The position numbers were made by a program, and so were the translations under genes. A model generated the notes under the pieces. It worked only from the letters and a program-made list of their open reading frames with translations. It was not told the DNA's origin and ran no database searches. A DNA stretch of 64,000 bases from Candidatus Micrarchaeia archaeon (GTDB lineage: Archaea; Micrarchaeota; Micrarchaeia; CAILAH01): contig JAVZCB010000002.1 of the NCBI GenBank assembly GCA_038874595.1, forward strand, positions 64,001-128,000. Reading direction: 5' to 3'. Positions 11,143 through 33,900 of the stretch are shown one piece after another (position 1 is the first letter of the stretch; each line of letters begins with the position of its first letter).

Positions 11143-12792
11143 TTATGTTTCTTGACAAGCAGAATCAGAAGATGTTGGTGCTTGCCCTTCCTTACCCTGA
11201 CATATCCCTGCAAGCTTCTGGTCTTTCCTCTTCTCTGCTTCAAGCCGTTCAAGATCATATTCTTTCATGTCAACAAACTGCATCGTGTCAGCAAGCAGCG
11301 GGTGGACCTCCTTTATTTTCCTATACATATCCTGTGCAATCCTCCTGTAATCCCTATGCCCCTGCCTTCCGCTTCTCAGCTCAATTAAATGGAAAGCCTC
11401 ACGCAGGTTCATCCTGATATACCACCTAACCTTGTACGCGAAAGGCACAACGTACTGGGCGTGAATTGGGGATAAGGAATGCAGGCTCCAGAATACACGG
11501 GCCGCATTTTCAAGCGCCTCCCTAAACTCGCTTTCGTACCCCGCATCATCTATTTCATAAGGGATATCATATCCGTGAGCAACCGTAAGAAGCTGCCTCT
11601 CTTGCGTAAGTATCCTGTGCCTATGAAGGTCCCTGTAAGCACCAAAGTTTGCTGTGATATCAAAGAGGTAATAAGTGTTCTCAAATGCGCGCCCCGGCTT
11701 ATGCCGCCTGTTTGTGCGGTTCCCAACATAATCGCGCAACACCTTAATCTTTTCATCATCAGTCATTGAATTGGCTATCTCGATACACTTTTGCATGCTT
11801 ACACCAGCAGAGCCAGAATAGAGAATTGCCGCAATCACCTTCTCAGTGCCATCTTTATCATAATCAGCAAGAAAAACCGGCTCCTGGCCCCCAAAAGGCC
11901 TTAGCTCCTTAACAAAAGAAGGATAACTGCTGCTCCCAAAAAATTGCACTGCCTCATCACCGTGCTTTGAGTATGCCCTCTTCAGAAAAACAGGAAACAC
12001 TTTGCTGAGCTCATCGTGCATTTTTCTGCCGAGATGAGTTATCTCGCTGAGTTTTGACGCGCGAGATTTTGTGATGAGATACTCAAATGCACGGCCGTTC
12101 CCGAACAGGCCCACATTAGTAAGCGTAGATGCAGGAAGAAGCCCGCGCAGCGTGTCACACACCTTTGCACGTATTGCTGACTCGTATGCACGCCCGCTTG
12201 TGCTCTCATCACGCGGAAACCTTTCCTCAAAGTATTGCTGCATCTTCGGCATGAGCGCGCTGTACGTATCAAAAAGAAGGTTGCATGCAGATATGTACTC
12301 ATCTGCGTATTTGGTGCCCATTATATACTCATCACGATAGAACTTGTAGTTACCGTTCACTTTTTCATTGAAATATACATACCTGCTCGACTTCTCGAGT
12401 GGTGATATGCCTATCCGCGCATCCTCAATAAACTTGGTTGCAAGGTTGCTTATATTCTCAAGTGCAATGTGTGCGCCTGCAAGCTCGGCAACTGAGTCGT
12501 CTCCGTATTCAACCAGAACACGCTCATAAAAATTATCTGCCTTTGAGATTGCACCCTCAAGCCTGGTATCAGAGCTGGCCTGGGGATGGAGCTCTTCCAA
12601 GCGGATTTCAGAACCGCTTATGAACTCATCAAGCAGGAGGCGCTTCAGGCTCTTTGGTGAGCGGCTGTACCGTGAGAACAGCGTCCCTTTAACAACTTCT
12701 GGCATGTTTATGAGCACAAAAACGTCACCATCAACGTTTGTGCAATATCTTGAAAGCGCAGATTTCTCAAAATCCGTAAATTCTTCTGGCAT
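11143..12792 (-). CDS. thyX: Flavin-dependent thymidylate synthase, long tandem-domain type
   Basis: LFSRYSRS, YGDDSVAEL, SPLEKSSRY in the first half; RDLHRHR and ELRSGRQGH in the second. Probable start MPEEF at 12792. Confidence 0.88.
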   Translation of the reverse strand: MPEEFTDFEKSALSRYCTNVDGDVFVLINMPEVVKGTLFSRYSRSPKSLKRLLLDEFISGSEIRLEELHPQASSDTRLEGAISKADNFYERVLVEYGDDSVAELAGAHIALENISNLATKFIEDARIGISPLEKSSRYVYFNEKVNGNYKFYRDEYIMGTKYADEYISACNLLFDTYSALMPKMQQYFEERFPRDESTSGRAYESAIRAKVCDTLRGLLPASTLTNVGLFGNGRAFEYLITKSRASKLSEITHLGRKMHDELSKVFPVFLKRAYSKHGDEAVQFFGSSSYPSFVKELRPFGGQEPVFLADYDKDGTEKVIAAILYSGSAGVSMQKCIEIANSMTDDEKIKVLRDYVGNRTNRRHKPGRAFENTYYLFDITANFGAYRDLHRHRILTQERQLLTVAHGYDIPYEIDDAGYESEFREALENAARVFWSLHSLSPIHAQYVVPFAYKVRWYIRMNLREAFHLIELRSGRQGHRDYRRIAQDMYRKIKEVHPLLADTMQFVDMKEYDLERLEAEKRKDQKLAGICQGKEGQAPTSSDSACQET

Positions 12793-12876
12793 AATTCTTT
12801 TTGTACCTAAACTATTATATGTGAAAACATCCAAAAACCTATATAACGAAAAATGCAAAATAAGGAAAAATAGCTA

Positions 12877-15800
12877 TTAGTGGTTGCTGAGCCATTGCAA
12901 TATCCTTGTGTACACCACGTATACCTTATCATTGAAAGTACCAATGTTGCCCTGGTTATACACCTGCACTGTTGGACCGCTTGGTGTATATGAAAGCGAC
13001 CTTGAAGTAACGTTAAGAGGTGCATCTGCAACCAGTGTGCCGCCAACATAAACCTGCAGGCTCGCATTATACTGCTCAGGCAACGGGCTCGGCTCAAGGT
13101 TTGGGCTGCCTGTAGGCACGAATGATATCAGCGCCGAACCGCTCGCAGTCGTGTTTGAATATCCAATACCTATGTTGGAGACGTTAGTGTTCGTGTACTG
13201 CGGGAGTGCTAACGGGGGCAGGCCGTTCTGCTCAGTAACCTGGACACGTGCGTTTGGTATCGGTACAAGAGTAATATGGTTTAGCACCGTTACGTTAAGG
13301 CCGTATGGCTTGCCTGCCCTCAACGGGTAATTATTGCCCACAACCGTACCGTTGGTGTATACTATAATGTTGAGCTTCTCACCACCGCCACTTCCACCAA
13401 GCGTGAGCCATTCCTTAACCCTTGAGTATACCCTGTACACATCATCATTGAAATAGCCTACGTTGCCCCTGTTCGGCACTGAAACCGCTGATGAATTCGC
13501 ATAAGGCAGGTTCCTGCGCGATACAGTCATTGCAACCGTACCTTTGTGAATGCCATTCTTATACGCCCTTACTGTTATGTTGTATGCACCTACTTTCTCA
13601 GCAAGCACCTCTGCAGCGCCTGTAGGAACAACTGTCAATGAGATATTACCGTGTCCATCGGTGTGCGATTTAGCATAAACATAGTTGCTGACGTTTGAGA
13701 CGGTATACTGCGGAAGGGCAAACGGCAGGTAGCCGTTATATTCATAAATCCTTACCTCGCTGTTCGGCACACCTGTTCCATTAAAGTACTTCAAGCGTAC
13801 TGTAAGGTTATACGGCTCACCTGAATTATAGAAAGATGTTGTCTGCTTCCCATCAACGAGCGTGATTATTGTGTAGGACGGCGATTCTGTGTATCCTGAG
13901 AATGAGGTGACACTAAACCTCATTGTATTTGGTGTCAGGCATACTTGCGAGGCTGGTGAGTACTCGTAACCGGCTGCCAATATTTCAGCCTTGCTCTTTG
14001 GGAAACCTTCCGCCCTAAGCACGCCAACACCACTTTCTGGACCGCAATCGCTCACATTAATCGTTATTGTAGCGCTCTTGTTGAGCTGTGCTGCACCAGA
14101 GTGTGAGCTGTTTAATGAGACAAACTCCTTATCGACTATGATGTTTGTCCCGTTTGTTAGGTATGCGTATGTGATGTTAGCAAAGCCCCATTTCACACAG
14201 CCAGCTTCTGAGCTGTCCACGCATACTGATAGGTTCGTGAAATTGTTCGAGTTAGCGAATGTTGTTGAATAACCTATGTAGAAAGACGCGTTATATATAA
14301 GAACATCTGATAACCTGTTAAACTCTGGTTGGTTTGCACCTGCAGATGAAAATATAATCATTGGGAACACGCTTAGTGCGGGGTCATGCATTGAAACATC
14401 AGAAATATTATTCCAGTCAGAATCCTGGTTAAAGTATATTGAAGCCATTGACCCATAAACTTCCCCTATATGGATATTGTTTGCAATGGCATTCTCCATC
14501 ACAATCCCGTATAGGTTGTCTCCAAATGTATTATTGGTAAGGTTTGCATAATGCGTCCTATAAACATATGCCCCTAAGAAATTGCCTTCTGACCTTGAGG
14601 CGTTTATTCTTGAGTGGTTGCTGAATAGGATTATAAGACCGTTGTTTTGCAGCGTATCTGAGCCACGCAATGTTGTGTTTGTAACATTCGCCCTTATCGC
14701 ACCGCAAAGCACAAGCTCTGAGTACTGGCCGTTAGCAAGGTTTGTCGGGACGTTTACAAAAAGTATCGGCCTGTTGCCAGAGCCGGTTACATTCTGCAAT
14801 GTTGTGTTACATATGGCATAGTATGGAGAATCGATAACTTGAAGATCCATCATGCCGCTCTCCTGTATTATGTCGTGTGCAAGCCTTGTACCTGTAAAAA
14901 TACCACCTATGTAAACACCTATCACAGATGAGTTGTACACCCTATTATAAAGAAGGTTATTGTAGTTTCCTCCTATTACAATTCCTCTTGAGGCAAAAAC
15001 TACCCTGTTCCAGGAAACATTATTCAAGGAGCTCTGGTCCAAAGAGATGCCATCATAACATCTTGTAATATTGTTTGATGAAACGTTGGCATAGTGGCTA
15101 TTCCTTATGTAAATCCCATTCCCATCAGAAGAACTGCAATTTACAATCTTGTTGTATGCAACCAGTGTCCTGTTTGAGTTTTGGTCAACAAATATGCCTT
15201 TTGATGTATTGTAAACAAAATTCCTTACGTGGCGGTTGCCTATTGCGTTCTGAGACATTATCGCGGCCGCTGTAAATCCAATGCCCCCACTAATATTTTG
15301 TATGGAGTTATCAGTGTAATTATTGTTATATGAGCCCAGGATCAATATGCCACCGGCAACATCGCGCCCTAACAGGTTATAGATGTGGTTATCATATATC
15401 GTGCTGTTTGTTGTGCCAAAATCTACTATGCCTCCCACCATTACACCAGACGCTGTTGCCGAGAGGTCCTTTATAGTGTTGCCTCTTATTGTAACATTAG
15501 ATAGATTGCCGGCTGACGGGCCACTAATCATCAAAATCCCAAATACCTTGCTTGAGGCCGGACCTGGCACATCTAACGTTATATTCCTTATCGTGTTATT
15601 AGCAATCACAAAGCCGCTGGATTTGTTCATGCTGTCTCCCAGTATTATTCCGCTTACGGTTTCACCATCATCAAGCTCGCTCCTGAAGTTCTCGATTGTG
15701 TTGTTAACTATCCAAATGTTGTTGAAGTGGTTGTAATTGTTTGCATCCTCGCCAAAATTGATACCGTGTGGCTGCTTGCCGCTGTCTGCTGTGAAATTCC

Positions 15801-18800
15801 TGAAAATGTTATCTAATATTAGGATGTTGCGGGCTGGATAGGCTGCTTCAAAACCTGCCCTGTAGTTCATGAAAGTGCAGTTGCGTATTGTTATATTCTC
15901 TATGTAGGCTGGCACACCGCTGTAAACAAACATTGCTGTGCCATTTCTGTTACCGATGAGCGTGCTGCCGTTGCAGTCAAGGCCAGATTTTGTAGTAAAC
16001 AAGAATAAGTAACCATCATTTGTTGAGTTCCAGAACGCAGGAATGTGATAGGTATCCTTACAAAGGATAATTGGTGCGTTAACCATAAGCTGGATGGGGG
16101 AAACGCCTGATATGTTAGTAAGCCTGCCCTCCCACGTGCTATTATCAGAAAGATTTACACATTGCAAAGTTTCTGCAAGCGGCCCGAACGGGCTGCTAAA
16201 GTTAGTAATCTCATACGCTGTTATGGTATTTAAGATTGGGTTTAGTTCCTGCCGTGCAATAAACCCTTTCCTCTGCCAAGAACCTGCGCTACTGCTGTAT
16301 TTCCATATCCTGATATCAAACTCTGAATGGCCAGGTGGGACCATAGTATCCTCATAGTAAAATGTTAAGTTAAGCCGCGAGGTGGGTGATGTGTTCTGGA
16401 TTTCCAGGAATAACGGTGGGGTGGCCAGCAAATGGTCAACACCAAACGGCAAAAGTGCAGACGGCATCGTTGTATTGGAAATCACCACATCAATATCACT
16501 AAATGAAATGTGTGTATGGTTAAACCTCGAATTGTTGACTAATGTATGGGATCCTTGCAACGAGATATAATATACCCTGTTCGTGAGGTTTACCTGGGAA
16601 ATGTTCATGTTGTTAAATGTGTTATTCTTAGATTGGGCGATGACCACTACACCTTCAGGTATGCCCCATCCCTGGTATACATAAAGCGGGTATCTCCCCG
16701 TAAGGTTTTGCAGCCTGATATTATCAAATATATTGTTCCACGCCCCAAACATAACGATTGATGGCACAACAACGGAATTTATACAGGAAACGTTTGAAAC
16801 CTGTGTATTGTTGGTAAACATCATATAAAGGCACTGCAAATTCTTATCAGATGTGGAATTGCTTATGCTAATGTTTTTGGACCATATGAGGTTAATTGCG
16901 CGCATGTTACCTACATAATCTGGCGGTAGAATAGGCAGAAAGGGGTCTACGTTATTTAGACGCTTAAAAGTGTTGTTGTACGCACGGGAATTCTGCGTAA
17001 CAAAGAATTTTATACCTTGGAGGGTCTCACCTGTGACGTTCCTCACAGTTACATTATCTGAAAATCCAATATATACAACGTGAGATACCGAAGTTATACT
17101 AAGATTTTCAAATATGACATTTGAACAATCAATGCACGCATAGTAACCGCCGTTAGTGTTTGTTTCAACATAGTTGTGCTTGTCGTTCCCTGCCCAAGAA
17201 CAATAGTAGTATATGGGCTTTCCATTTATTGTATTTGAAGTGTCTATGTCATGCTCAAAATAGTCGTGTACGATAGGGCCCATTACCTCCCCATCATCAT
17301 ATGCAAGCCCGAAGTTCTCAAAATTATTCACAAATTTGTTATTGCGCATTATAAAATGCTTGAACCGTATTCCGCTGCCTCTAAAATTGTTTGTTATGTT
17401 GTTGTCCTGGAGTGTTGTGTTATGGGCGTGGACGTAAAGTGCATGGAAGAGATTATCAAAAGAGCAGTTAGTTACCTTAAACTTTTCTGCATAGCCAATA
17501 AAGTAGTTGCCATAGGGGTCACTGCCCGGTATCCTGCCTTCTATCCCGCCAGTCATATTATAGAAAACTGAGCGGTCAATCCACACATTAGAGACATTTC
17601 CGTGGTTATGGAAGCATATGCCCCCATATTCTATCCCACCATTTGAGCAATTCAAGTATGATATGTTTACATTGTAAACATTCGGGTAAAGATAGATGTG
17701 GGCGCGGTCGCCAAATGCCGCCACGCTCGCGTTTGAGTAGGTAATGTTTACGTGCCTCATCCGTATGTTGTATGTGCCCCAGAACAGAACCGAGGTGATA
17801 TTGTTTTTATGGAAGGATGAGTTCTCTATCCTGATGTTTGTTGAGTTTGCAATCCTTACAACTGCGAGCGGGTTGAAGACATTATTATCCGTACTCGCCC
17901 TGTGCAGCGTGAATTTGCTGTTAGAGATTGTTAAATCATCTGCAAAAACAGCCTGAACAGACTTATTGTTGTTTGTGCTTGTTAAGTTGTCAATGAGAAC
18001 TGATTGGGTTGCGTTTGAAAGGTTGAGTACCATATAAGAGTTGAACACACTTGTATCTCTTATGCGCAAATCACGTGATATGCTGGTTTTATTGCCATAA
18101 ATGTAGAAAGCAGTCGTGCTATTAACCACCCAGCTGCCTGTGAAATTGATGTGTGATGAAGCGTTTACGGCAAATCCCTGCGGCGTATTATATATGCTGG
18201 TGCCGATAAGCTCTGACTGGTTCGTATCTATCAGCCATATTCCATAGAGGCAATTGCTTACATTGCTGTTGCTTAAGGTCAGGTTGTTAATGTTCCATTC
18301 TGAAATAAAGGCTAAATCACACCTCGTGAAATTATTGCCTGATACTTGGTTATGGTCAGAGTTCTGGGTTATCTCAACACATATGTTTGGGATATTATAA
18401 AACCTGTTGTTATTGAAGGCAGAATAGTTTGTGCTTATTATTAAGGCGCCCCTGCTTCCAAAGGAATGAATCCTGTTTAAATTAACCAGCGCATGTGCTG
18501 AGTTCTCAATGCGTATACCTGCACCGTTTGTGAAGTTGTAGATATCGTTTAGTGTCACGCGGTCGCGGGTGCCGTACTCAATGTTGATGCCATAAGTGCA
18601 GTTATAGATTGTATTGTTGAGGAAAGTATTGTTTGAGCCGTCCTTTGAATATATCCCAGTGCCTGCAAGGATGCTGAATATAGTGTTATTAGCAACAGTA
18701 TTGTTATGGCTGTTATCCATCTCTATCCCGTACTGTGTCCCGTTAAATATCATGTTTCCTATGATTGTGTTGTTATATGAAGGGTCCAGATAAATGCCTG

Positions 18801-21333
18801 TAGAAATATTGTATATCACCACCCCCCTTATATGGGTGTTGTTTGATGAATTAACAACAATCGCCCTTGTTGTATTGAATATTGTACCGTTCATTATAGT
18901 AATGTTCTTCAGGCCGGGCACGACATATACACCGGTTGCCCCATCCCGAACATTATAACCATTCAAATCAAGTATGACGTTGCTTGAAGTTATTCCTATT
19001 ATTGCAAGTGTAGCACTGCCCTGCGAGTAATCCCTAGAAAGTCTAGTAACACCTGGCGAGGATATTGTCATATTGAAGCTGTTTTCATACTTGTTTACCG
19101 CAGCATAACCTGAGAATGAGGTTGCGTTGAACCTAAGTTTAGTGCTGGAGATACACTCCCTATAACCAGGTATAAATTCAATGCCTGTTGAGAGCACATC
19201 TGCTCTAGATAGCGGCAACGAAACTGGACTTCTATAAATTGTGAAGTCGTTGGGATTGGAGCATCCGCTCACTAATAATGTGACGTTTGCAGGGCCATCA
19301 AACTGTGATGCACCCCAGTGTGTACCATCCATAGATACAAAATCTGCCCCTATGAACAGGTTATCAATACCCCCGCCTCCTTGGTAGCCGAGGAATGCGT
19401 TTGTAATCTGCCTGAAGCTAAACATGATGCAGGTTGAAAGTGAATTATCATTACAAAGTGTAAGATTGGTAAAGTTCTGCGGGCGGTAGCCTGAAAAATC
19501 CCAACTGAATCCAACATACCTGGAAGTATTGTATAGGGTAATGTTATAAAACGCATTCGCATCTGGGAAAGTTGAGGGGGTTGTGTTTGAGAATTGTATT
19601 GCATACGTCCAGCTATAACCGTATGCAATGCTATGGAATATGGAGTTCGAAATAACGTTTTCTTTTGAATTGTCCTTCAATAAAATTGCGTTTACAGGGA
19701 AATATGAGATTGTATTGTTATCAAGCACACATTTGCTTGTGTTGTCAAGCATAATGCCTGTGCTGAACGGGCCGGTACTGCTAGATATTATATTATCCTT
19801 TGCAGTACTGCCATTTGATTCTACCAAGTGTATTGCATTAGTGCCTGATAGAAATATCGTGTTGTTAATGATTGTTATGTTAGGTGTTGGGGAATCACTT
19901 GGCCCTGGTGACCAAGCACGCTGTGAGCCGATAGCGTCGTACTGCGAGCCAGAGATGTAATTGCTTGAGATTAGGTTATGGCCAGAGCCATTCATTAGCA
20001 TGATACTATTGCTTCCACCAAGCAGATGGTTCCTTAAAATACGGGTGTAAATGCTGCTTGAGTCAAGCATAATATTCTGCCCGCCGTTGTTATACGCCGT
20101 GTTATTGGTAATGTTACAGTTCTTGGACCCTTTAAGATATATGCCAAACCCTGTGCTGCCTGATATGGTATTGTTTTCCAGCCGTGTGTAGTGTGATTTG
20201 AATATGCCTACACCAGTACCAAAGCCCAATATGTTGTTTATGTTGCTCACATTATTGCCTATAATTGAGTTAAGGCTGGAGGAATCCACATTTATTCCCA
20301 TACCATTTGTGCAGTGGCTGATGCTGTTATTATAGATTAGGTTATTAGATGAGCCAGAACCTATATCGATGCCGTGGCCACTGTTGTTGTATAGTGTGTT
20401 ATATGCAATGATGTTGCCAGTACTAGAGTCAAACAACCCTATGCCTTGGGCAAACCCTGAAACTGTATTGTTGTTTGAAAGGATGCGGTTGCTTGTTATG
20501 TTGCTGCTTAAAACCCCTGAGAAAATAATACCTGCATTGTTGTTGAAGCTTATAGTATTATTATGGAAAGAGCTGTAAGCGATTGTACCACCACCTATAC
20601 CATAGTTCCCGTTGTTGAATATTATGTTTTTTGAAATGTTCGCACTTGAAATTGTACCTATTTGAATACCAATATCATTATTGCCATAAATAGTATTGTT
20701 AAAAACTGTGAGGTTTATGCTGCTACCAAACGAAGCGCCTTTATCATTGTTATAAATAACATTACGAATAAGCCTGGTATTGTTTGCTGCAAAAACCTCA
20801 AACCCTGTCTCTTCATTATTGTGGATTTTGCTATCTGCAAGTGTAATGTTGTTTACAATATAGGCCATAATGCTTTTGTTGTTGCCGTATATGTCAACGT
20901 TCTGAACTGTTGTGTTGTTCAGCTTGTACATCCATATAGCAATTGGTGTTGAGGCGCCCGGTGCAGGTACGTAATTAAGGTAATCGTGTATGCTACAATT
21001 CTTGAAAGTTATATTAGTATTTATGACACTTGAACCGCCAAAAAAATCGTTCGGGTCACCTATGAAAACTGCAATTGCATCAAAAGCCCCAGTACCATCG
21101 ATTTCGTTTCCCTGGCAGTCTATTATTATATTTGAGGTATTAAAGAGCAGGCATACTGGCATTGAAGGGTGTATTATTCCATAAAGTGTGTCATTGATGC
21201 GATATTCAGTGTATGGGGTATCATATATACCGCAAGCAGATATGTTTGTGTATGCAAAAGAGACTGAGATGGCTAAAGATAAGACAGCAAAAGCTAATAC
21301 AAATAGTCTTAAGCACGTTGAGCATTCCCGCAT
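12877..21333 (-). CDS. Giant secreted right-handed beta-helix (NosD/CASH/PbH1-repeat) surface protein, 2818 aa, three modules plus two C-terminal 'GxPY' domains
   Basis: Signal peptide; hundreds of G(I)xL..S.NN.I.NN-type coils; DCxG capping motifs; HDIDTSNTINGKPIYY; duplicated C-terminal domain; no C-terminal TM. Confidence 0.85.
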   Translation of the reverse strand: MRECSTCLRLFVLAFAVLSLAISVSFAYTNISACGIYDTPYTEYRINDTLYGIIHPSMPVCLLFNTSNIIIDCQGNEIDGTGAFDAIAVFIGDPNDFFGGSSVINTNITFKNCSIHDYLNYVPAPGASTPIAIWMYKLNNTTVQNVDIYGNNKSIMAYIVNNITLADSKIHNNEETGFEVFAANNTRLIRNVIYNNDKGASFGSSINLTVFNNTIYGNNDIGIQIGTISSANISKNIIFNNGNYGIGGGTIAYSSFHNNTISFNNNAGIIFSGVLSSNITSNRILSNNNTVSGFAQGIGLFDSSTGNIIAYNTLYNNSGHGIDIGSGSSNNLIYNNSISHCTNGMGINVDSSSLNSIIGNNVSNINNILGFGTGVGIFKSHYTRLENNTISGSTGFGIYLKGSKNCNITNNTAYNNGGQNIMLDSSSIYTRILRNHLLGGSNSIMLMNGSGHNLISSNYISGSQYDAIGSQRAWSPGPSDSPTPNITIINNTIFLSGTNAIHLVESNGSTAKDNIISSSTGPFSTGIMLDNTSKCVLDNNTISYFPVNAILLKDNSKENVISNSIFHSIAYGYSWTYAIQFSNTTPSTFPDANAFYNITLYNTSRYVGFSWDFSGYRPQNFTNLTLCNDNSLSTCIMFSFRQITNAFLGYQGGGGIDNLFIGADFVSMDGTHWGASQFDGPANVTLLVSGCSNPNDFTIYRSPVSLPLSRADVLSTGIEFIPGYRECISSTKLRFNATSFSGYAAVNKYENSFNMTISSPGVTRLSRDYSQGSATLAIIGITSSNVILDLNGYNVRDGATGVYVVPGLKNITIMNGTIFNTTRAIVVNSSNNTHIRGVVIYNISTGIYLDPSYNNTIIGNMIFNGTQYGIEMDNSHNNTVANNTIFSILAGTGIYSKDGSNNTFLNNTIYNCTYGINIEYGTRDRVTLNDIYNFTNGAGIRIENSAHALVNLNRIHSFGSRGALIISTNYSAFNNNRFYNIPNICVEITQNSDHNQVSGNNFTRCDLAFISEWNINNLTLSNSNVSNCLYGIWLIDTNQSELIGTSIYNTPQGFAVNASSHINFTGSWVVNSTTAFYIYGNKTSISRDLRIRDTSVFNSYMVLNLSNATQSVLIDNLTSTNNNKSVQAVFADDLTISNSKFTLHRASTDNNVFNPLAVVRIANSTNIRIENSSFHKNNITSVLFWGTYNIRMRHVNITYSNASVAAFGDRAHIYLYPNVYNVNISYLNCSNGGIEYGGICFHNHGNVSNVWIDRSVFYNMTGGIEGRIPGSDPYGNYFIGYAEKFKVTNCSFDNLFHALYVHAHNTTLQDNNITNNFRGSGIRFKHFIMRNNKFVNNFENFGLAYDDGEVMGPIVHDYFEHDIDTSNTINGKPIYYYCSWAGNDKHNYVETNTNGGYYACIDCSNVIFENLSITSVSHVVYIGFSDNVTVRNVTGETLQGIKFFVTQNSRAYNNTFKRLNNVDPFLPILPPDYVGNMRAINLIWSKNISISNSTSDKNLQCLYMMFTNNTQVSNVSCINSVVVPSIVMFGAWNNIFDNIRLQNLTGRYPLYVYQGWGIPEGVVVIAQSKNNTFNNMNISQVNLTNRVYYISLQGSHTLVNNSRFNHTHISFSDIDVVISNTTMPSALLPFGVDHLLATPPLFLEIQNTSPTSRLNLTFYYEDTMVPPGHSEFDIRIWKYSSSAGSWQRKGFIARQELNPILNTITAYEITNFSSPFGPLAETLQCVNLSDNSTWEGRLTNISGVSPIQLMVNAPIILCKDTYHIPAFWNSTNDGYLFLFTTKSGLDCNGSTLIGNRNGTAMFVYSGVPAYIENITIRNCTFMNYRAGFEAAYPARNILILDNIFRNFTADSGKQPHGINFGEDANNYNHFNNIWIVNNTIENFRSELDDGETVSGIILGDSMNKSSGFVIANNTIRNITLDVPGPASSKVFGILMISGPSAGNLSNVTIRGNTIKDLSATASGVMVGGIVDFGTTNSTIYDNHIYNLLGRDVAGGILILGSYNNNYTDNSIQNISGGIGFTAAAIMSQNAIGNRHVRNFVYNTSKGIFVDQNSNRTLVAYNKIVNCSSSDGNGIYIRNSHYANVSSNNITRCYDGISLDQSSLNNVSWNRVVFASRGIVIGGNYNNLLYNRVYNSSVIGVYIGGIFTGTRLAHDIIQESGMMDLQVIDSPYYAICNTTLQNVTGSGNRPILFVNVPTNLANGQYSELVLCGAIRANVTNTTLRGSDTLQNNGLIILFSNHSRINASRSEGNFLGAYVYRTHYANLTNNTFGDNLYGIVMENAIANNIHIGEVYGSMASIYFNQDSDWNNISDVSMHDPALSVFPMIIFSSAGANQPEFNRLSDVLIYNASFYIGYSTTFANSNNFTNLSVCVDSSEAGCVKWGFANITYAYLTNGTNIIVDKEFVSLNSSHSGAAQLNKSATITINVSDCGPESGVGVLRAEGFPKSKAEILAAGYEYSPASQVCLTPNTMRFSVTSFSGYTESPSYTIITLVDGKQTTSFYNSGEPYNLTVRLKYFNGTGVPNSEVRIYEYNGYLPFALPQYTVSNVSNYVYAKSHTDGHGNISLTVVPTGAAEVLAEKVGAYNITVRAYKNGIHKGTVAMTVSRRNLPYANSSAVSVPNRGNVGYFNDDVYRVYSRVKEWLTLGGSGGGEKLNIIVYTNGTVVGNNYPLRAGKPYGLNVTVLNHITLVPIPNARVQVTEQNGLPPLALPQYTNTNVSNIGIGYSNTTASGSALISFVPTGSPNLEPSPLPEQYNASLQVYVGGTLVADAPLNVTSRSLSYTPSGPTVQVYNQGNIGTFNDKVYVVYTRILQWLSNH

Positions 21334-25160: not shown

Positions 25161-26747
25161 TCATATTGTTGAAATGGACGCCCCCATATTTGAAAGCACC
25201 ATATTGATGTTCTGCAGCGAAGATGCTATCAATGTTGCTGTTGCCTCATCCATATCCTCATCCATTGCCGCCGGCGGCTCAAGCTGCGTATCTACAGGAA
25301 AAGAAACCTCTGCAAACTGGACATTGCTTTTGTAAAGCCTTATTGTCAGGTTTGCGTTGTTATTATACTTTGTCGGGATTACCACGAGCAAACTTCTTGT
25401 GTCCAAAAGCTGTGCATTTGAGTAGTTCTTATCCGGCTGTTGCGGGACGACCATTATGAAGCCTGAATCCTCGCGGACAGTCATATCTGCAATAAATGGT
25501 GAACCAAGATTGTCAAGCGCTGTAACGTTGATTATATTTGGTGCGCCTGCCTTGAGTACCGGCACGGCTGTGTGAGTCCCATCCTCCGATATGTTTATTG
25601 CATGGCGTTTCATCTTACCTTCTGAAATCCACTTGGTTGCTGTCGCTGCAAGGGCGTTCATGTTCTGCACAGAGCTCTTTACCTGGCTGGAGTATTGGGG
25701 GCTTACAAGCGAGCTGCGATATGTGGGTGAAAGCGAGGCATAATCTGTTATGTTAAGCCGCTTAATGCAATAAATGGGGCTTGTAACTTCTACATATATC
25801 TCATAGCCATACGAGTCAGGTATGTTATAGCGTGTTGGTGAGACAGCATACATCGCCTGGCCGGTGCCATCTGCAACTGCATAGCCTCGCTGGATGTGTG
25901 TGTTTGCACCAAATAATGGAAGTAGAATATTACGGCCATTAACTTCAGAGAGCCGCAACTGTGCGTTTGGGATTACCGCACCGCTTCCTAAATCGCGCAC
26001 AACAACACGCAGCTCGTAAGGCACACCTGTTTTCGGGAAGTGTGTTGTATAAGTGCCGTCTATGTATGTGTCTATGACGCATTCAGGATAAACATAAAAG
26101 TAATAACTCTCGTTCCTGGGCATCATATATTGGAAATCAAAAACGGTTGTGTTGTAGCCTACCTGGGGGCCAAGCGTTACTATAAAGAGTGGCTCAACGC
26201 GCGTGCCGTTGTTGAATTTCAATATGCTCAAATTGATATTTGGGTTTAGTATTATGTAGGGGCACGGGATTACAAGGCCGCTAATATTGCAGGAGTGGTA
26301 AATGCATGCTGGGTTGCAGAAAGTATAGAGCGGGCTCTCAATGAACTTCATAAAATCTAGGCCTGCAAATGTCGTAAAGCCGGAAAACATCCCGCCATTG
26401 CCGAAATCTGCGGGTACTGGCGACTGAAAATGGCTTGGCGAGGGACGCACCGGCAAGCGGGTAAGTATTGCACTCTGGCCTGGGAAACTCCCATTGATAT
26501 ATGTTGTGTAAACTGTTGCATTTTTGGCATATACAAATCCGATCGGTTTTGAAACGTCCGGAGATACCGAAACGTTCATCCAGCCAACAACCGCTGCCCA
26601 ATGTGAAGTTGGCATATTAACTGATAGGTTTGAGCTGGAGATGTTACCGCCGCGCGTAACCATGCTGCCTGCGTGAGCCGCGTGCGCTGCAAGGATTATT
26701 AAAATGAATAAAAATAGAAAAGATGGGCACTGCGACGCAACCATCAT
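25161..26747 (-). CDS. Secreted adaptor-like protein: pilin-like 'A' domain + two 'GxPY' domains
   Basis: Start MMVASQ just after the upstream stop; signal peptide ending AHA; GGNISSSNLS...HWAAVVG...YYFYVYPE; then TGVPYEL...EVNG...VSPT and AGAPNII...EDSG...VIPT. Confidence 0.75.
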   Translation of the reverse strand: MMVASQCPSFLFLFILIILAAHAAHAGSMVTRGGNISSSNLSVNMPTSHWAAVVGWMNVSVSPDVSKPIGFVYAKNATVYTTYINGSFPGQSAILTRLPVRPSPSHFQSPVPADFGNGGMFSGFTTFAGLDFMKFIESPLYTFCNPACIYHSCNISGLVIPCPYIILNPNINLSILKFNNGTRVEPLFIVTLGPQVGYNTTVFDFQYMMPRNESYYFYVYPECVIDTYIDGTYTTHFPKTGVPYELRVVVRDLGSGAVIPNAQLRLSEVNGRNILLPLFGANTHIQRGYAVADGTGQAMYAVSPTRYNIPDSYGYEIYVEVTSPIYCIKRLNITDYASLSPTYRSSLVSPQYSSQVKSSVQNMNALAATATKWISEGKMKRHAINISEDGTHTAVPVLKAGAPNIINVTALDNLGSPFIADMTVREDSGFIMVVPQQPDKNYSNAQLLDTRSLLVVIPTKYNNNANLTIRLYKSNVQFAEVSFPVDTQLEPPAAMDEDMDEATATLIASSLQNINMVLSNMGASISTI

Positions 26748-26754
26748 CTTAGAA

Positions 26755-28494
26755 CTACCTCTTTCTCTTAGCAGTCTCGTGCTCCTCTGCCTGCCCGCCC
26801 CTCCTTGTAGCAAAATATATCACCACTATCAGGAGAATTATCACTAATATTATTAAGCCAATCATCAGCGGGTCTATGCCTTTATCACTTGCAATACGCT
26901 GGAGTGGTACTACTGACTCTTTTGTTTTTTGCAGGAACCCTTCCCTTGCACCATATTTGAGTGAGACCTTAACTTCTTTGTTCGCCTCCAAATCAGAAGG
27001 GGATAAGCTAGCTGGCAGTGTTACCACAGTAATTGAGCCTACTGGCACTTTGGTTGTGGCTCCACCCTTTAATGTTGTTAAGCTTCCGCCCATAACAAGA
27101 GATACTGATGCCTGCACGTACGCATCCTGCTCGCCTGTGTTCTTAATGCTTATTCTTAAATCGCCATCTTTATATGAGACACCTGCAACGTCAACATCTG
27201 AATTATCCATAAACGAATACGTTGCAATATCAATTGACTTTGCAGTAAACGCTGTAAGGGATTTTGGGGTTTCCCCATATCTTACTATAACATCACCGGT
27301 AATCTTACCCTCCTCAATAGATGGCAATTCATAATCATACTCAAGCCCTTTCGTCTCGCCGCGCTCTATGAGTAAGGGTTTCGTGTCTCCCAGCACTTTC
27401 AGCTCAGTATCGTCCTGTTTTATGTGTATTTCTGTCTGGTAATATTCCGGCCCTTCTGCCTTGCTTGTGATTTCAAGCTCGATTTTGCCAGTCGCCTTGT
27501 TGTATTTCAGGGAATCTATACTCATCCCAAGGACGTATGAGGGGACCGGGAAAATATCAAGAGGGAATGTGCCCTGGGTGCCAGGCACTGACTGCCCAAA
27601 CTTTACTATTACAGCAATTGATTTGTCGCTACCCTCGCTCTGCAGCTGGGCCTGCACTCTTTTCTTGAGATCATATGCCGGGTTTATGAGATTGCTGCCT
27701 ATAAGGATATATGAGCCCAGCTTGCCCGTGCGGGCATTTTCAAGCACAAAATCATAGGTAGAATCTGCAATTATAGGTGATATCAATACCACTGGAAGCG
27801 TGCCATCAACCATCCCCTCTTCTATAAACGTGCCATCGGACATTATCGCCTGCTTAACACCGTGCTCATTTACCATTTTTGAAACCAATTCAACGTTATC
27901 CTCATACTTGTCTTCCCCTTTGCCTATTACAGTTGGGGAGTACTTCTCTAGCTTCTTTCTTGTTGCTGAATCTACATATCCGAAAATTGTTACTTGCGGC
28001 GAATCCTTCCTATCAAGAAATTTGACAACATTATCAACGTTTCCACTATACGCAAATATGACGTAAGATTTTGTCATTTTTGCATATGAAATCACTGAGA
28101 TTGCATTCTGGCCAAAAGAAGGGTCTATTATTATGAATTTGTTTACTCCTGACTTCTCTGCAAGGTCCAGGTTTGTCTTAAACCCATCTGCGGATACACT
28201 GTATAAAGTTACCTTGTTTGATTTTCTCAGCTCATTTTCAAGGAATGTCGTAACTGGGGTGTTTGCGGATTGTATAAGCAAAATATCCCTGCCTGAACCT
28301 ACCTTGGCTGCTGTAAGCTGATAGTTACCATTAAACGGCATAAACCGTGCGCCTATACCTATTGCGTTTGCATAGTAAATGCCTGATAATACATCAAGGC
28401 CGCTTTTTGAGTTTATAACAACATAATTCTCTGCAAACGCGAGCGGAAATGCAAACAAGAGCAACATCAATACAGCATGCTTGCTTATCATCAT
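26755..28494 (-). CDS. Exported membrane-anchored protein with cell-wall-binding-2-like alpha/beta repeats and Ig-like domains
   Basis: Signal peptide; SADGFKTNLDLAE and GEDKYEDNVEL resemble the CWB2 GxDRYxT motif; C-terminal TM followed by RRGG. Confidence 0.6.
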   Translation of the reverse strand: MMISKHAVLMLLLFAFPLAFAENYVVINSKSGLDVLSGIYYANAIGIGARFMPFNGNYQLTAAKVGSGRDILLIQSANTPVTTFLENELRKSNKVTLYSVSADGFKTNLDLAEKSGVNKFIIIDPSFGQNAISVISYAKMTKSYVIFAYSGNVDNVVKFLDRKDSPQVTIFGYVDSATRKKLEKYSPTVIGKGEDKYEDNVELVSKMVNEHGVKQAIMSDGTFIEEGMVDGTLPVVLISPIIADSTYDFVLENARTGKLGSYILIGSNLINPAYDLKKRVQAQLQSEGSDKSIAVIVKFGQSVPGTQGTFPLDIFPVPSYVLGMSIDSLKYNKATGKIELEITSKAEGPEYYQTEIHIKQDDTELKVLGDTKPLLIERGETKGLEYDYELPSIEEGKITGDVIVRYGETPKSLTAFTAKSIDIATYSFMDNSDVDVAGVSYKDGDLRISIKNTGEQDAYVQASVSLVMGGSLTTLKGGATTKVPVGSITVVTLPASLSPSDLEANKEVKVSLKYGAREGFLQKTKESVVPLQRIASDKGIDPLMIGLIILVIILLIVVIYFATRRGGQAEEHETAKRKR

Positions 28495-28680
28495 AACACC
28501 CCTACACACTGTTTCTATTCCCTATTTTTATTACATTACTATAGCGTAATATTATATAAAGGAATCATACCTGCAGGAAATTGCCGTAGCAGGAATATAA
28601 TACCATAATACCGGCTTATTAATAGCACGCTCTTTCCAGGATACGTGCATCAGCGCATTAATGGATAATAAGAAGAAATG

Positions 28681-28700
28681 CAAAAAAGAAAGAAAAGAGG
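28681..28700 (-). terminator. Oligo-T archaeal terminator after the 224-aa gene
   Basis: Minus strand reads CCTCTTTTCTTTCTTTTTTG immediately after the stop codon. Confidence 0.55.
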
Positions 28701-28708
28701 TTTCCAGC

Positions 28709-29383
28709 TTATGCGAGCTCTGCGTAGAAGTAGTATGTGGTCAGGCCTGTATCTGGCGTTGTTGGAACCATCAGCTCATAGTGTGCTGGGTTGCCAAGGT
28801 AGTTGTTGCCTGTTGCGTTTGCTGCTACGCAGAATGCATAATTTGTTGTGTCTGTAATTGCACAGGTCCTGAATGTATCTGCTGCATTGTTGCCTGTGTC
28901 AACTGCTGGAGCACTGTTAATAGCACCCTGGCCTGCAAAGTTCAGTGTGCATGTCCCGGTAAGTGTGTTGGTTGCGTTGTCTGCCGCATTACCTAAGTTA
29001 TAGAATGAGTTGACGCCTGCAGCAGTTGCAGCAGCTGCACCAAGGAAATTGAATGCACCACTGTTTGATGCACATACATAACCACTGTTAATCGTGGTTA
29101 CAGACCACCTGTAAACATAGTTTGTTGTGCTGCCTGCAGCAGAGGTTAAGTAAATCGTACCTGTCAGGTTTCCAAAGAAGGCTGCCCACCTGTCAGTTAA
29201 TGATGTTGCTGAGAGGTTCAGGTCTGAGATGTTACCACCTTCAATGGATATCCCCTGTGCTATCGCACTGCCCTGCCACCTAGCATAATAGCTTTGGGTG
29301 GAGTTGGTTGCGTTGTATGGTGTTGCGAACGCGAGGCCGAACACCATCAATACTCCAAACATGGCCATGTATCGCCAATTCAT
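28709..29383 (-). CDS. Small secreted Ala/Thr/Asn-rich protein, candidate major filament subunit ('A' domain)
   Basis: Class I signal peptide (..GLAFA|T); EGGNISDLNLS...RWAAFFGN; 4 Cys; ends YYFYAELA. Has its own GGTGA RBS, upstream TTTAAA box and terminator. Confidence 0.7.
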   Translation of the reverse strand: MNWRYMAMFGVLMVFGLAFATPYNATNSTQSYYARWQGSAIAQGISIEGGNISDLNLSATSLTDRWAAFFGNLTGTIYLTSAAGSTTNYVYRWSVTTINSGYVCASNSGAFNFLGAAAATAAGVNSFYNLGNAADNATNTLTGTCTLNFAGQGAINSAPAVDTGNNAADTFRTCAITDTTNYAFCVAANATGNNYLGNPAHYELMVPTTPDTGLTTYYFYAELA

Positions 29384-29553
29384 ATTGTATCACCTGGAAC
29401 GTATTCTGCAGTAAGGTTTAAATATCTTATATGATATTCCTTCCCACAAAGAAGGATATCTATCTGGTAAGAGTTACTGGCGTGAAATGATTGGTATTAA
29501 TAAGTATTTTGGTTGTAGAAAACTATTTATTTTGGGCCTGAGTAAATTACCTC

Positions 29554-30918
29554 ATGAAAACGCTAAAACACTCTAAGATTAATGATATAAAAGAGAACGA
29601 GCTGAAACAGACCTCTAATAAAGTTGAGTTTGCGAGGCTCTTTAAAGATATGCTAAAAGATGAAAATAAAGAAAGCCTGCTCACCAAATTAAAGGAGAAA
29701 GGCAAAAAGGCAATGATCACGCTTATCGCCGTCTCAATGCTTTATACTACTAACATAAACTGCGGTGAGAGTGTTCCACAACCGCCTGTCGTTGAGGATG
29801 CGGTAATAGCAAAGGATGCGTCTCCAAAAGAGGATGCTACTGCTCCAGATGATGTTAGTGACGCTGGGAAGGATGTACTGGAAGATGCTAAAGGGGATGT
29901 AGATGTTGATAGCGGGGTGGGTGATGATACCGCTACGGACGCTAAAGAGGATGTAAATGACGACAGTGGGATTGATGCTGGGGAACAGGTTGATGATGTA
30001 GGGCTTGATGCAGATGATACTATTGATGTTAACTGGCCGGATGCGGGAGTGGATGCTCAGGATGTTCCTGATACGGGTGATACTGGCGAGGTAACAGATG
30101 TATGTACGCCAGGAGAGTGGGAAACAAAAGCTGAGGATAAGAGCAGGGATGATATTTTTATATCAAAAGAAGGTACAAGCATAGGTGTGAATACAACGTT
30201 TAACGTAGAATACGAAACTAACGGCTGTGAAATCAACAATGAACATATAACTCGCATAATATACAAATTTTCACCCTCTATAAACCTAGATAAAATGTCG
30301 CTTTCCCAGGTGCAACTAGGGCTGTGTACAACTATTGATAATTGCGATTTGCTGGAGCTTGAATATCCCGGAGAAACTTCTGCGATAAAGCTGGCACAAA
30401 CTTATGGGTTCGGGCTAGAGAAGGAAATAATATTCGGCATAAAAAGGATTGTTGATAAATCAAATGAGTTTACCGGGTGCCATCCAATCTCACCAAAATG
30501 CTACACAATGAAAGAAACAAATGGTACAACTGAGAGGGATGTTCAGGTATGCTGCTTTGGGAATGGCCAGCAGCCTATCGATTTGTACTATAATAAGGTA
30601 AGGTATAGCGTTGCAACCACAACAGGTGCCACTTGCTTAAGTGCAGATGACAGGTGCTTGGAGCTGCTTACATTTACACCTAATGAAGACATAAGCAAAA
30701 TAAAGTACAGATTTTCCGTTGCCATCGACCAGCCATATATGATGGTTCAAGGAAAAACAATATGCTACGGCGACTCTATGCAGGTACCGCTGGGTAACGT
30801 TACAAAAGAGTGTGTTCCTTTCGAAAAAGATGGTAAAGTTTTCTCTGTGGAATATGTAGAGAAAGATGCAAATGGGGATATCAATAAAATCGCAATGAAG
30901 GTAAACAACAAGGAATAG
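29554..30918 (+). CDS. Putative lipoprotein/membrane-anchored protein with Asp-rich DA(G) low-complexity linker and Cys-rich C-terminal domain
   Basis: ~50-aa charged leader, hydrophobic stretch ending NCG, then repeated DA/DAG/DSG/DTG units. Confidence 0.65.
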   Translation: MKTLKHSKINDIKENELKQTSNKVEFARLFKDMLKDENKESLLTKLKEKGKKAMITLIAVSMLYTTNINCGESVPQPPVVEDAVIAKDASPKEDATAPDDVSDAGKDVLEDAKGDVDVDSGVGDDTATDAKEDVNDDSGIDAGEQVDDVGLDADDTIDVNWPDAGVDAQDVPDTGDTGEVTDVCTPGEWETKAEDKSRDDIFISKEGTSIGVNTTFNVEYETNGCEINNEHITRIIYKFSPSINLDKMSLSQVQLGLCTTIDNCDLLELEYPGETSAIKLAQTYGFGLEKEIIFGIKRIVDKSNEFTGCHPISPKCYTMKETNGTTERDVQVCCFGNGQQPIDLYYNKVRYSVATTTGATCLSADDRCLELLTFTPNEDISKIKYRFSVAIDQPYMMVQGKTICYGDSMQVPLGNVTKECVPFEKDGKVFSVEYVEKDANGDINKIAMKVNNKE

Positions 30919-30944: not shown

Positions 30945-33900
30945 TTACTCCAGTTCTATATATATAGTTATTGTGTTCCCTGCGCCTTCATATGTTGCGA
31001 GGGTATACGGAATCATTGCAGCGTACATATACTCACCGTACGTGTCAGGTTCTGGGGAAGGACTTGCCTTGACTGCCCATACCGTGGATTGTGTGCCTGA
31101 ATACTCACTACCACCATCTGATGTGTCCCATAATATACCTGTCTTGAATTGTGTTGGTCGTAGTGATGAGTTTGCAACGGGGACGTTTTCAACTGTCCTC
31201 TTGTAGATTGCATAACTGTCTGTCTCTTTTGGAATCGTCCCATCAATTGAATATGTCTTGTTTATATTATCTGGGAATGATGTACTTGAAAATGCCGTGT
31301 CAAGCTCAATGAAATCGTTAGAGCTCGCTCCACCGGAAGTATCCCTGCCTATTGCCTGAAGCGCTTGCCAATCAATTATCGAATCACCATCTGCAAAGTA
31401 CACGTTAACAGCCTTTGCATCATTCCACTTGTAGACATATCTTGAAAGCCCTCCTTCACTGTCTGTCAGATAAATGCTCCCATTAACATTTCCAAAAAAT
31501 CTCTGCCAGAGGCCTGAGCACGAGAATTCACAACCATAATGGTTATTCTCGGCCCACTGGTACCAGTAGTCACAGTAGTCTTTCTGGCCGCTGCTTGATA
31601 TCATTCCGTTAATATAGTTGTTTTCAATATCCATGTTATCATTAAAGCATATGTAGTTGCTTGAAAGTGTATAAGTGAGGCTGTTCTGGTCAAGATAGAT
31701 TCCCTTAACGGTGTTTCTTGATATATTATTACCACTTAGGAAAATGGTGTTGCTGTTCACTGAATTTATACCGTACGTGTTTGAAACTACTGTGTTGTTG
31801 TTTGCGTAAACACGTACTGAAGAGATAATATAGACACCCCCATACAATGCGCTCGGATTCCTGATGTAATTAAACTCAATGAAGTTATCCTCGCTTACTC
31901 CAAGGAAGTGCACTCCAGAATACTTGTTGTCAATAAAGGTGCTGTTTGCAATCAGGTTATATCCTGTACCATCAAGCATTACACCGTGTTGTGTATTATT
32001 ATATGAGCTTACATTAACCAACCTGTTATTAGTACCACCAATTAAAAGATATCCGGAATATGAGTTATTGTATGACTTGCCGCCGGTTACATTATTATAT
32101 ACGGCCCCATTCAGGATAAAACCATACTCACCGTTAAGGTAGGCGGTATTATTATTTAGAGCATTATAACTGCTCTCAAAAACATCAAATCCATTCTTGG
32201 TGTTTGAATACATCGTGTTGTTTATGATGTTTGATCTGGTTGACATATAAACAAGTACCCCATCAGGATTGTTGTTGTAGCCAATGTTATTTCTCATTGT
32301 ATTGTTATCAGACTGATAAATTACATAACCTGCGTATGCACCGCTACCACAGTTATATACCGTATTATTCTCAAAGATGCTATGGTTTGATGAGTTCGTT
32401 GCAATACCAAACGCAGAGTTGTTTATTACATTCCTGTATGCAACGCTGAGATTTCCAAGCTCATAGACTATTCCACCGCCGAACACCGCAAATGAAATCC
32501 TGTTGCTTGAAACATTGATACGGCTGCTGTTGTATACATTGGTTGCGTGAGAATAGCTCAAGGACATGTTGTTTTCAGAAATGTTTGAGGTGGCTGAATT
32601 CCTGAGCCGTATATGCTCATAATTCATCCTGAAAACGTTCTCCACCACTGTTATATTTGAAACAAATTCTGCAAGAATGCTTTTTCCATTGTTTGTTGTA
32701 TGGTTCTCAAATATGTTGTTTTTAATGAGATTGTTACCGCTTTCTACCATGTGTATGCCGTAATATGAATTGTTTGCAATTTTATTGGAACCAATGAAGT
32801 TATTCTGTGAATTGCTCTGGAAAAGCATCCCCTCCTGGTTTAAGCGCACTGTGTTGTTTGTGATAATCGTAGATTCTGTTCCGTATATGAGCATGCCTGC
32901 ATTTGAATTTTGCGTCACGTTATTCAGTATAATAGATGAATTCCCACAGTAGGATAATGTAATACCGTATGAGTTGTTATATACGCTGTTCCCGTATATC
33001 GTCTGATTCCTTGATGGGTAGAAGTAGAGGCCGTGGCCCTGGTTCCTGTACACCTTATTAAGCATTAATGTGTTGTTGCTTGAGGCAGTCAAAACACCGT
33101 CCCCATAATTGTGGTGGATTGAGTTGTTGTATATATAAGAGTATGGAGACCTGTCACCTATAAGTATCCCAAATTGCGAATTGTTGTATATGTCGTTTCC
33201 ACTCAAGTTTGTATACATAACAGATAGTACAAGGTTGTATGAGTGGATTATCATCCCTCCCTGGCCGTTAAACGAAACATTATTCTGTAGTATTTTGCTG
33301 TTGTGGCTATCCCTTATAATACTAATGCCTGCCGCTGTGTTCCTGGTAAATGTGCTATTCCTGATTACGTTATCTGTACTACCATCCCTAAGAACAATAC
33401 CATTTTGCGAGTTAAATGACGCTATGCTGCTATTTATAATATTCTGGACACTGCCTATAAGGTAGAACCCATCGTATGAATTGTTGGATGAATTATATAA
33501 CGTAAAGTTATTGTTGTTTGAGTATTCAATGCGCACGCCATATGAATTATTAGATGATTTACCTCTTATTATCTTGTTAGAGTTGCTCGCGTAAATATAG
33601 AAGCCATAAAGATTTGAATATGCGGTATTGTTTGTGAAATTATTATATTGTGAAGATATATATGCCCCTAATCCTGCAGCTGAGTTGTTGTAGAGAGTAT
33701 TATTCTCAACGTTATTGTAATTTGACATATAAGCTAGTAATATTCCAAACTGAGAGTTGTTGAATACTGTATTGTTATGTATGAAATTCCCAGATGCCAA
33801 GTAAGTCGTAACACCATGAGTGTAATTTTGCACCTTACAATTTCTCACCGTAACATTCTGCCGGTTTGCATCCACAAGCACACCTATTGAACCATCTATT

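Follow-up and report, generated by a model that had tools for sequence, protein, structure and literature searches.

A conserved Micrarchaeota surface domain as a candidate donor-strand fibre subunit

We analysed a 64,000-nucleotide stretch of contig JAVZCB010000002.1 from a Candidatus Micrarchaeia archaeon (assembly GCA_038874595.1; hereafter the window), focusing on the open reading frame (ORF) at 28709..29383 on the minus strand, which encodes a 224-residue protein that we call P0001. Of the explanations we considered for P0001, the best supported is a donor-strand fibre, in which each copy would lend an N-terminal strand to its neighbour outside the cell; judged on structural models and comparative patterns, we put its chances at about even. 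P0001 is a credible, if unproven, building block of a surface fibre on which giant adhesins might be carried. It may be the “major polymerising subunit” proposed by a first-pass annotation of the same DNA, or it may instead form short adaptor chains or act as a tether.

The A-domain family and its predicted head-to-tail interface

The domain that makes up P0001, which we term the A domain, defines a genuine family of surface proteins, one that is conserved and has so far gone unannotated. P0001 matched no family in Pfam (E≤0.01) or NCBIfam, and searching its 46 aligned homologues against Pfam at E≤1 returned no family common to all of them. A profile built from this alignment (A1) retrieved 1173 cluster representatives at E≤1e-3, 865 of them at E≤1e-10; the close homologues of P0001 are named as Micrarchaeota, Bilamarchaeaceae and Anstonellaceae. 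Of 301 sampled genomes of the phylum, 65 had at least one member. Most of these belong to a few taxonomic families, and two large families yielded none (0 of 75 and 0 of 54 genomes). Invariant across the 46 homologues are R35, W36, G49, G50, N51, L62, T63, W66, A67, G71, L79, W93, C104, D135, T140, C185, G192, P207 and Y217. The source genome itself (0.92 Mb, 93.5% complete, seven contigs) holds eight A-domain copies that fall into four architectural classes. In another genome, a stand-alone homologue (G259:C6:5358-6020) contains one in-frame TGA.

Four parts can be distinguished along P0001:

29324..29383, minus strand: Sec-type signal peptide, residues 1-20, ending A-F-A before T21 (read from sequence; AlphaFold2 (AF2) helix at 3-18; Ala at -1 kept in homologues)
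29240..29323, minus strand: mature N-terminal extension, residues 21-48, with a sequon at N24 and the invariant R35-W36 (alignment A1; left unplaced by AF2)
29186..29239, minus strand: GGNISDLNLS strand and linker, residues 49-66, the predicted donated segment (alignment and complex model; N51 sequon in 100%)
28712..29185, minus strand: all-beta A-domain core, residues 67-224, with Cys104/145/174/185; predicted acceptor surface 62-81, 86-99 and 202-224 (AF2 and complex model)

The leader comprises a short n-region (MNWRY) and a 14-residue h-region before the A-F-A motif, and cleavage before T21 is the probable reading of this sequence. A class III leader of type IV pilins was considered and rejected, the -1 Ala of the homologues following the h-region rather than preceding it (a reading of the sequence, made with no predictor). 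The first-pass annotation, which gave P0001 a ~22-residue extension, had not noticed the signal peptide; the mature extension that precedes GGNISDLNLS is 28 residues long. P0001 carries seven N-glycosylation sequons, a density of 3.1 per 100 residues that lies at the 99th percentile of the genome, and the N51 sequon is present in 46 of 46 aligned sequences; the protein is probably N-glycosylated. The mature protein has four cysteines. It contains no lysine in 204 residues (window 28712-29323, minus strand), alongside 34 Ala, 30 Thr and 23 Asn; the absence of lysine may be an adaptation to heat or acidity outside the cell, or a protection against proteases.

AF2, run with the alignment, predicted a confident all-beta core spanning residues 63-224 (mean predicted local distance difference test score (pLDDT) 75.5, predicted template modelling score 0.67). 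Residues 20-61 were left unplaced, with pLDDT<50 and no secondary structure, despite holding the invariant R35, W36, G49, G50 and N51. The modelled core resembles no solved structure among those searched: Foldseek against the PDB returned nothing at E≤0.001, and VIA-align, run on 48,161 chains, reached Z values no higher than 3.2 for P0001 (root mean square deviation 3.1, 69 residues aligned) and 2.8 for the A domain of a giant neighbouring protein, with pilins occurring only among the insignificant rows. Profile A1 searched against all PDB sequences at E≤10 gave three chance rows only, and a shape search of the ESM Atlas found three unnamed archaeal clusters only (template modelling score 0.72).

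A complex model gave the unplaced segment a predicted partner. We predicted three copies of P0001 residues 21-224 alongside three controls, and the three-copy model reached an interface score (ipSAE, interaction prediction score from aligned errors) of 0.69, against 0.08 for the best control, with runs agreeing in at least 73% of contacts and a partner pLDDT of at least 72. Calibrated on proteins of solved structure, this mark was attained in 20 of 30 homo-pairs and in 1 of 23 single chains. The first-pass annotation had proposed that a homo-oligomer prediction might place the N-terminal strand in a neighbouring copy; a head-to-tail interface through the N-terminal segment is indeed what was predicted, and the models showed neither a monomer closed by its own strand nor a lack of such an interface.

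The best run puts residues 42-64, 66 and 68 of one copy, the donor, in contact with residues 62-81, 86-99 and 202-224 of its neighbour, the acceptor. Residues 52-57 pair with 68-73 in parallel register and 61-66 pair with 77-79 and 91; this constant offset implies that the donated segment lies parallel to each of the two arms of the neighbour’s first hairpin, and must therefore itself fold back around that hairpin. In the same model L57 contacts acceptor residues 103, 202 and 219, while the invariant D135 of the donor touches acceptor residue 77 and W93. The predicted interface includes 13 of the 19 invariant residues (Fisher p 0.02). P0001 shares 55-58% identity with two complete fused copies of the domain at interface positions, compared with 31% elsewhere; from its stand-alone paralogue on contig 5 the strand has strongly diverged (25% identity over residues 41-60). 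P0001 is thus predicted to self-associate head-to-tail through its conserved N-terminal segment.

Four classes of A-domain architecture

The first-pass annotation had described graded N-termini in three A-domain proteins of the window, and this gradation holds: the architectures recur as conserved subfamilies, encoded close together in several genomes. In the source genome, class (i) comprises the full stand-alone proteins, P0001 and a second 224-residue paralogue on contig 5. Class (ii) proteins join a passenger to a complete C-terminal A domain, as in proteins of 711 and 938 residues whose strand, IEGGNISDLNLS, is identical to that of P0001. Class (iii) consists of strandless C-terminal copies, found in a 4862-residue giant and a 772-residue protein, in which a Cys-rich junction (C..W.W..GC..C before W.RFFGN) takes the place of extension and strand. 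Class (iv) proteins are strand-first, with the strand lying 3-8 residues past the signal-peptide cleavage site; they are the 528-residue P0002 and a 692-residue protein on contig 5. In the window, classes (iii) and (iv) are represented by:

25161..26747, minus strand: P0002, 528 residues; signal peptide, six residues, then GGNISSSNLS (orthologous N-termini at loci L012, L014 and L016)
30948..31508, minus strand: strandless A core at the extreme C-terminus of the 4862-residue beta-helix giant, matching the A domain from residue 61 onward only
about 31509-31643, minus strand: Cys-rich junction preceding the A core of the giant

The similarity of P0002 to the A domain is detectable over about 31 residues only; P0002 is a candidate strand-only terminator or linker. 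Its residues ~243-466 resemble the C-terminus of a 2818-residue beta-helix protein (12877-21333, minus strand; 27% identity, E 1.5e-5), a likeness that ties the A module to another group of surface proteins encoded in this row of genes.

AF2 gave the C-terminal 232 residues of the giant the same core strand order, starting from W46, with no confidently placed cis strand upstream; the Cys-rich junction, cut from its helix, was left unplaced, and no cis replacement of the strand is therefore predicted; the junction may still form a self-complementing cis hairpin. Class (iii) is a conserved subfamily: 20 of its domains, once aligned, matched A1 with a probability of 98% (E 1.8e-13), the match starting only at position 61. 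The junction itself, C.NG.D...CDS[FW]..W.ENGH.GC[ET][YF].C[ST]..WHRFFGN, joins the last beta-helix coil to the strandless core (window 30948-31643, minus strand) and occurs at 19 loci (within L050-L069).

Across genomes the profile boundaries are sharp: full domains match positions 1-227, strandless ones begin at 62-67 in ORFs of 1300-4700 residues, and strand-first ones begin at 41-43 directly after the signal peptide. Classes (iii) and (iv) recur in other genomes, often a few kilobases from a stand-alone copy, and in at least seven genomes a strandless giant lies within 10 kb of one. Among the best 150 representatives, 59 (~40%) are long proteins with the A domain at their extreme C-terminus.

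The strands themselves fall into sets by locus. P0001, the 528-residue protein and both class (ii) proteins carry GGNIS..NLS, while the contig-5 stand-alone protein and the 692-residue protein carry GGNVTN..LS. Comparing strand-first proteins with the stand-alone strand of their own genome (13 loci in 12 genomes), we counted 51 identities in 117 positions, against 35.2 +/- 3.7 when permuted (p 4e-5); leaving out two near-constant positions, the same-genome match had p 0.008. The rest of these strand-matched domains shares 25-40% identity in short local alignments. The second set is encoded together on contig 5 (C5:2387-7027), where the 692-residue strand-first stalk, a 568-residue paralogue of the CWB2-type neighbour of P0001 described below and the second 224-residue A protein (GGNVTNMDLS) are found. 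After its strand, the stalk carries CARDB, DUF7107 and CarboxypepD_reg-like domains followed by C-terminal transmembrane helices.

Gene neighbourhood, flanking signals and codon usage

The gene of P0001 is flanked by recognizable signals and, on its 3' side, by a second conserved gene:

29417..29422, minus strand: TATA-like box TTTAAA, ~34 nucleotides 5' of the ATG (motif read from sequence)
29390..29394, minus strand: Shine-Dalgarno-like GGTGA, six nucleotides 5' of the ATG (read from sequence)
28682..28698, minus strand: oligo-T or T-rich tract directly 3' of the P0001 stop
26755..28494, minus strand: P0003, 579-584 residues, 3' of P0001; signal peptide, CWB2-like head, CARDB, C-terminal transmembrane helix and basic tail

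P0003 belongs to a family that is large in Micrarchaeota; at least 25 of 68 listed homologues carry CWB2 (PF04122), some of the homologues carry CARDB, and PF04122 itself had no direct match in the source genome. A P0003 paralogue (31% identity, E 4e-76) adjoins the second stand-alone A copy, and homologues adjoin the stand-alone gene in two other contigs and in five of five further genomes, that is, at every locus examined. In four of those five the P0003 homologue lies exactly between the stand-alone and strand-first genes, giving a conserved order of stand-alone A protein, CWB2-transmembrane protein and strand-first protein. P0003 could be an anchor, an assembly factor or a true binding partner of the A domain. 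On the other side, between the gene of P0001 and that of the giant, a 454-residue gene (window 29554-30918, plus strand) has no Pfam or NCBIfam match and no paralogue in the genome.

The ORF, TTTAAA box, GGTGA ribosome-binding site and oligo-T tract listed by the first-pass annotation are all present at their sites. The T-tract is likely to be an archaeal terminator. In two other contigs (L001 and L002) the orthologue is likewise followed by a T-tract, and the next gene, P0003, has its own TTTATATA at 28560..28553; together with the T-tract of P0001 these make a separate transcription unit plausible, so that the claim of a monocistronic gene stands at the level of motifs. The accompanying argument from codons for high expression is not supported. 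GCA and ACA are simply the favoured codons of the genome (49% and 42%, respectively), and P0001 is unremarkable in their use, lying at the 81st percentile for GCA, the 57th for ACA and the 66th on the main codon-usage axis, where thermosome, RNA polymerase and a 912-residue S-layer family protein lie at about the 99th. The sequencing runs listed as containing this DNA are DNA runs from hot-spring metagenomes, with no RNA run among them.

The 912-residue protein (C4:90915-93653, locus L070) matches PF05124 (E 3e-14) and stands at the top of the main axis; PF05123 (S_layer_N) had no match in the source genome. P0001 itself has no S-layer family match, and its identity as the S-layer protein was rejected because this separate PF05124 protein is encoded on another contig. 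At the opposite, extreme low end of the axis are AGA/TTA/AAA-rich gene clusters on contigs C1 (218600-224700) and C3 (59500-70800) of the source genome, which may be acquired islands; judging by their N-terminal sequences, some of their genes may be of glycosyltransferase or sugar-modifying type. Elsewhere in the window, a 571-residue ORF (11143-12858, minus strand) matches ThyX (Thy1, E 3e-40) only in residues ~333-520, after an N-terminal extension of ~330 residues, and may be a fusion or have an over-extended start.

Proposed assembly, alternatives and known fibres

In the donor-strand scheme, P0001 would be exported by the Sec pathway, lose its signal peptide and be N-glycosylated. Outside the cell, copies would bind head-to-tail: residues ~42-66 of one would wrap around its neighbour’s first beta-hairpin and C-terminal strands, and this donated segment would extend the neighbour’s sheet in a strand-exchange linkage. 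No other protein form is made up of strand and acceptor core alone, and P0001 would therefore be the obvious unit to repeat along a fibre or short chain. The C-terminal A core of the giants, which has no strand, could only accept, placing it at the distal end; strand-first proteins (the 528-residue protein and the membrane-anchored 692-residue stalk) would donate theirs, placing them at the proximal or terminating end. Passengers with a complete A domain could join anywhere, and the membrane-anchored CWB2/CARDB protein P0003 would act as anchor or assembly factor. What the analysis shows are the sequence features, the architecture of the family, the synteny and the predicted interface; removal of the signal peptide, N-glycosylation, the length and polarity of the polymer and the part played by P0003 are inferred.

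Several points weigh against such a fibre. All the evidence for binding is model confidence; structure predictors can render a cis strand as a swapped one, and of the two interfaces in the trimer one is fully confident while the second is limited to residues 79-81 and 90 of copy 1. The enrichment of invariant residues is tempered by the overlap of interface positions with what is anyway the most conserved part of the family. About 50 of the 59 long proteins with a C-terminal domain keep the R[WFY] extension and the GGN strand, which fits a closed domain equally well; a strandless fused copy is therefore the exception, and the reading of every fused copy as a cap is not general. Strand co-variation within genomes could stem from paralogy or within-genome gene conversion. 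The ordinary codon usage of P0001 lends no support to high abundance, and literature searches on Micrarchaeota pili and adhesins returned nothing on the A family and no fibre in these organisms.

The main alternative, which we consider improbable yet serious, is that the A domain is completed by its own strand in cis and holds proteins at the surface through the CWB2-like head of P0003, possibly with N-glycans, the stand-alone copy being a small partner, a filler or a regulator. Long proteins of great diversity carry the domain at their extreme C-terminus, a position typical of sorting and anchoring modules, most such copies keep the N-terminal segment, and the CWB2/CARDB/transmembrane protein is paired one-to-one with the stand-alone gene, in two pairs in the source genome and in all five further genomes, with PF04122 in many of its homologues. 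A cis-closed tether sits poorly, however, with an AF2 monomer that leaves the strand out of the cis position and with a homo-oligomer interface predicted well above controls, and a simple tether would have no need of strandless and strand-first classes with genome-matched strands.

A two-dimensional array or sheath, as an S-layer accessory or second layer in which the head-to-tail contact would be one lattice contact among others, appears unlikely. A small, sequon-rich, lysine-free secreted protein with a membrane-anchored stalk partner does recall two-component SlaA/SlaB S-layers, and the weak VIA-align rows include the S-layer chains 7ptp and 8qox (Z 2.8-3.1, not significant); on the other hand, the genome already encodes its PF05124 protein with top-percentile codon usage, that of P0001 is ordinary, and the existence of strand-only and acceptor-only classes speaks for an assembly that is linear and polar. 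Least probable of all is that P0001 is a soluble secreted glycan- or host-binding protein whose predicted oligomer is an artefact: the lack of a known fold and the weakness of one predicted interface would allow it, but the N-terminal segment is invariant without having a role in the monomer model, and both the use of the domain as a recurring module and the conservation of the three-gene set speak for assembly.

The donor-strand fibre has functional counterparts, and P0001 belongs to no named fibre family by sequence where this was tested; the resemblance would be one of function. Chaperone-usher pili (with the FimA/PapA rod, the FimH/PapG tip adhesin and the PapH terminator) are built of subunits with a donor strand and a groove, a two-part tip adhesin with a strandless pilin-like domain, and a terminator. 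The logic of the parts that the first-pass annotation had seen in P0001 and its relatives, a repeating subunit with strand and acceptor, a strandless tip and a terminator, does compare with this by analogy. The comparison goes no further: the PapD-type chaperone PF00345 had no match in the 93.5%-complete source genome (control genomes responded), P0001 matched no chaperone-usher pilin family at E≤0.01 (Pfam Fimbrial, SCPU) and resembled pilin folds in insignificant rows only, the organism has no outer membrane, and its presumed N-glycosylation would be archaeal. The predicted donated segment, moreover, runs parallel to the first core strand and wraps a hairpin, rather than lying antiparallel to strand F in the groove of an immunoglobulin fold.

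By analogy of function, the closest working counterpart would be the Sulfolobus acidocaldarius thread, whose subunit Saci_0406 (with Saci_0405 as putative cap) has a Sec/signal peptidase I-type leader, a conserved N-terminal tail that is donated, heavy N-glycosylation and a leader unlike that of type IV pilins; it falls in no Pfam family, the gene beside it encodes a protein that has the N-terminal strand but lacks an acceptor site, and its assembly factors are not known (PMC9715654). The P0001 set likewise has a Sec leader rather than a type IV pilin leader, an N-terminal tail as predicted donor, a high sequon density, no Pfam family and a nearby strand-only protein. It differs in that the thread is crenarchaeal whereas the P0001 family belongs to Micrarchaeota (DPANN), that the A1 search of PDB sequences found no thread entry and no significant fold match emerged, and that the A domain is also fused to giant beta-helix passengers and membrane stalks, with a CWB2-type anchored protein always adjacent.

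Fibres of the TasA superfamily, which include archaeal bundling pili, Pyrodictium cannulae (10.1101/2024.12.30.630787) and a Tat-dependent bundling pilus (PMC12337348), resemble the proposal as chaperone-free archaeal extracellular fibres with strand donation, and serve as biofilm or matrix structures. Membership of P0001 in this superfamily was rejected, there being no Peptidase_M73 (PF12389) match in P0001 or its genome and no PDB sequence match with A1; its signal is Sec-type rather than Tat, and modular tip and anchor classes are not described for TasA-type fibres. The Mth60 fimbriae of Methanothermobacter thermautotrophicus are formed by a small secreted glycoprotein whose self-assembly needs no type IV machinery, and whose operon, also small, encodes further proteins of unassigned function, a suggested chaperone among them (PMC10370314); compared by description only, P0001 too is a small secreted glycoprotein subunit, presumptively, in a small gene set. 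CWB2-anchored proteins of Clostridioides difficile and the WxL/Csc clusters of Lactobacillales each resemble the A system in having a module that occurs both alone and at the end of many large surface proteins, encoded beside a membrane- or wall-anchoring partner. The A domain is neither CWB2 nor WxL (no Pfam match; an Atlas feature search ranked WxL as the nearest named cluster, at 0.75, no better than chance), a cell-wall polymer is absent from Micrarchaeota, and for the A domain a head-to-tail self-interface is predicted.

Carried to its furthest extent, the donor-strand reading would describe a lineage-wide plug-in fibre of DPANN archaea whose fold has no solved relative: subunits polymerizing without a chaperone as the N-terminal hairpin of each wraps the next, giants with a strandless acceptor domain capping the distal end, strand-first stalks closing and anchoring the proximal end, and two orthogonal sets of matched strands and grooves per genome (here GGNIS-DLNLS and GGNVT-NMDLS) forming a programmable display rail for host-attachment proteins in genomes of <1 Mb. 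We advance this larger picture tentatively, as distinctly less probable than the fibre itself.

DPANN archaea, Micrarchaeota among them, live attached to host cells by means that are, to our knowledge, largely unknown. The A family is large and unannotated and ties together the largest surface proteins of these cells, with eight copies in a 0.92-Mb genome. If it forms a strand-donation polymer, it would constitute a fourth, structurally unrelated archaeal donor-strand lineage beside threads, bundling pili and cannulae, and tafi; it would explain how anchorless adhesins of several thousand residues are displayed, and would supply candidates for the tip, base and anchor parts that are still missing for known archaeal fibres. 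Even if the domain proves to be a tether, the A domain and its CWB2-type partner would make up a general surface-display system that deserves a family name.

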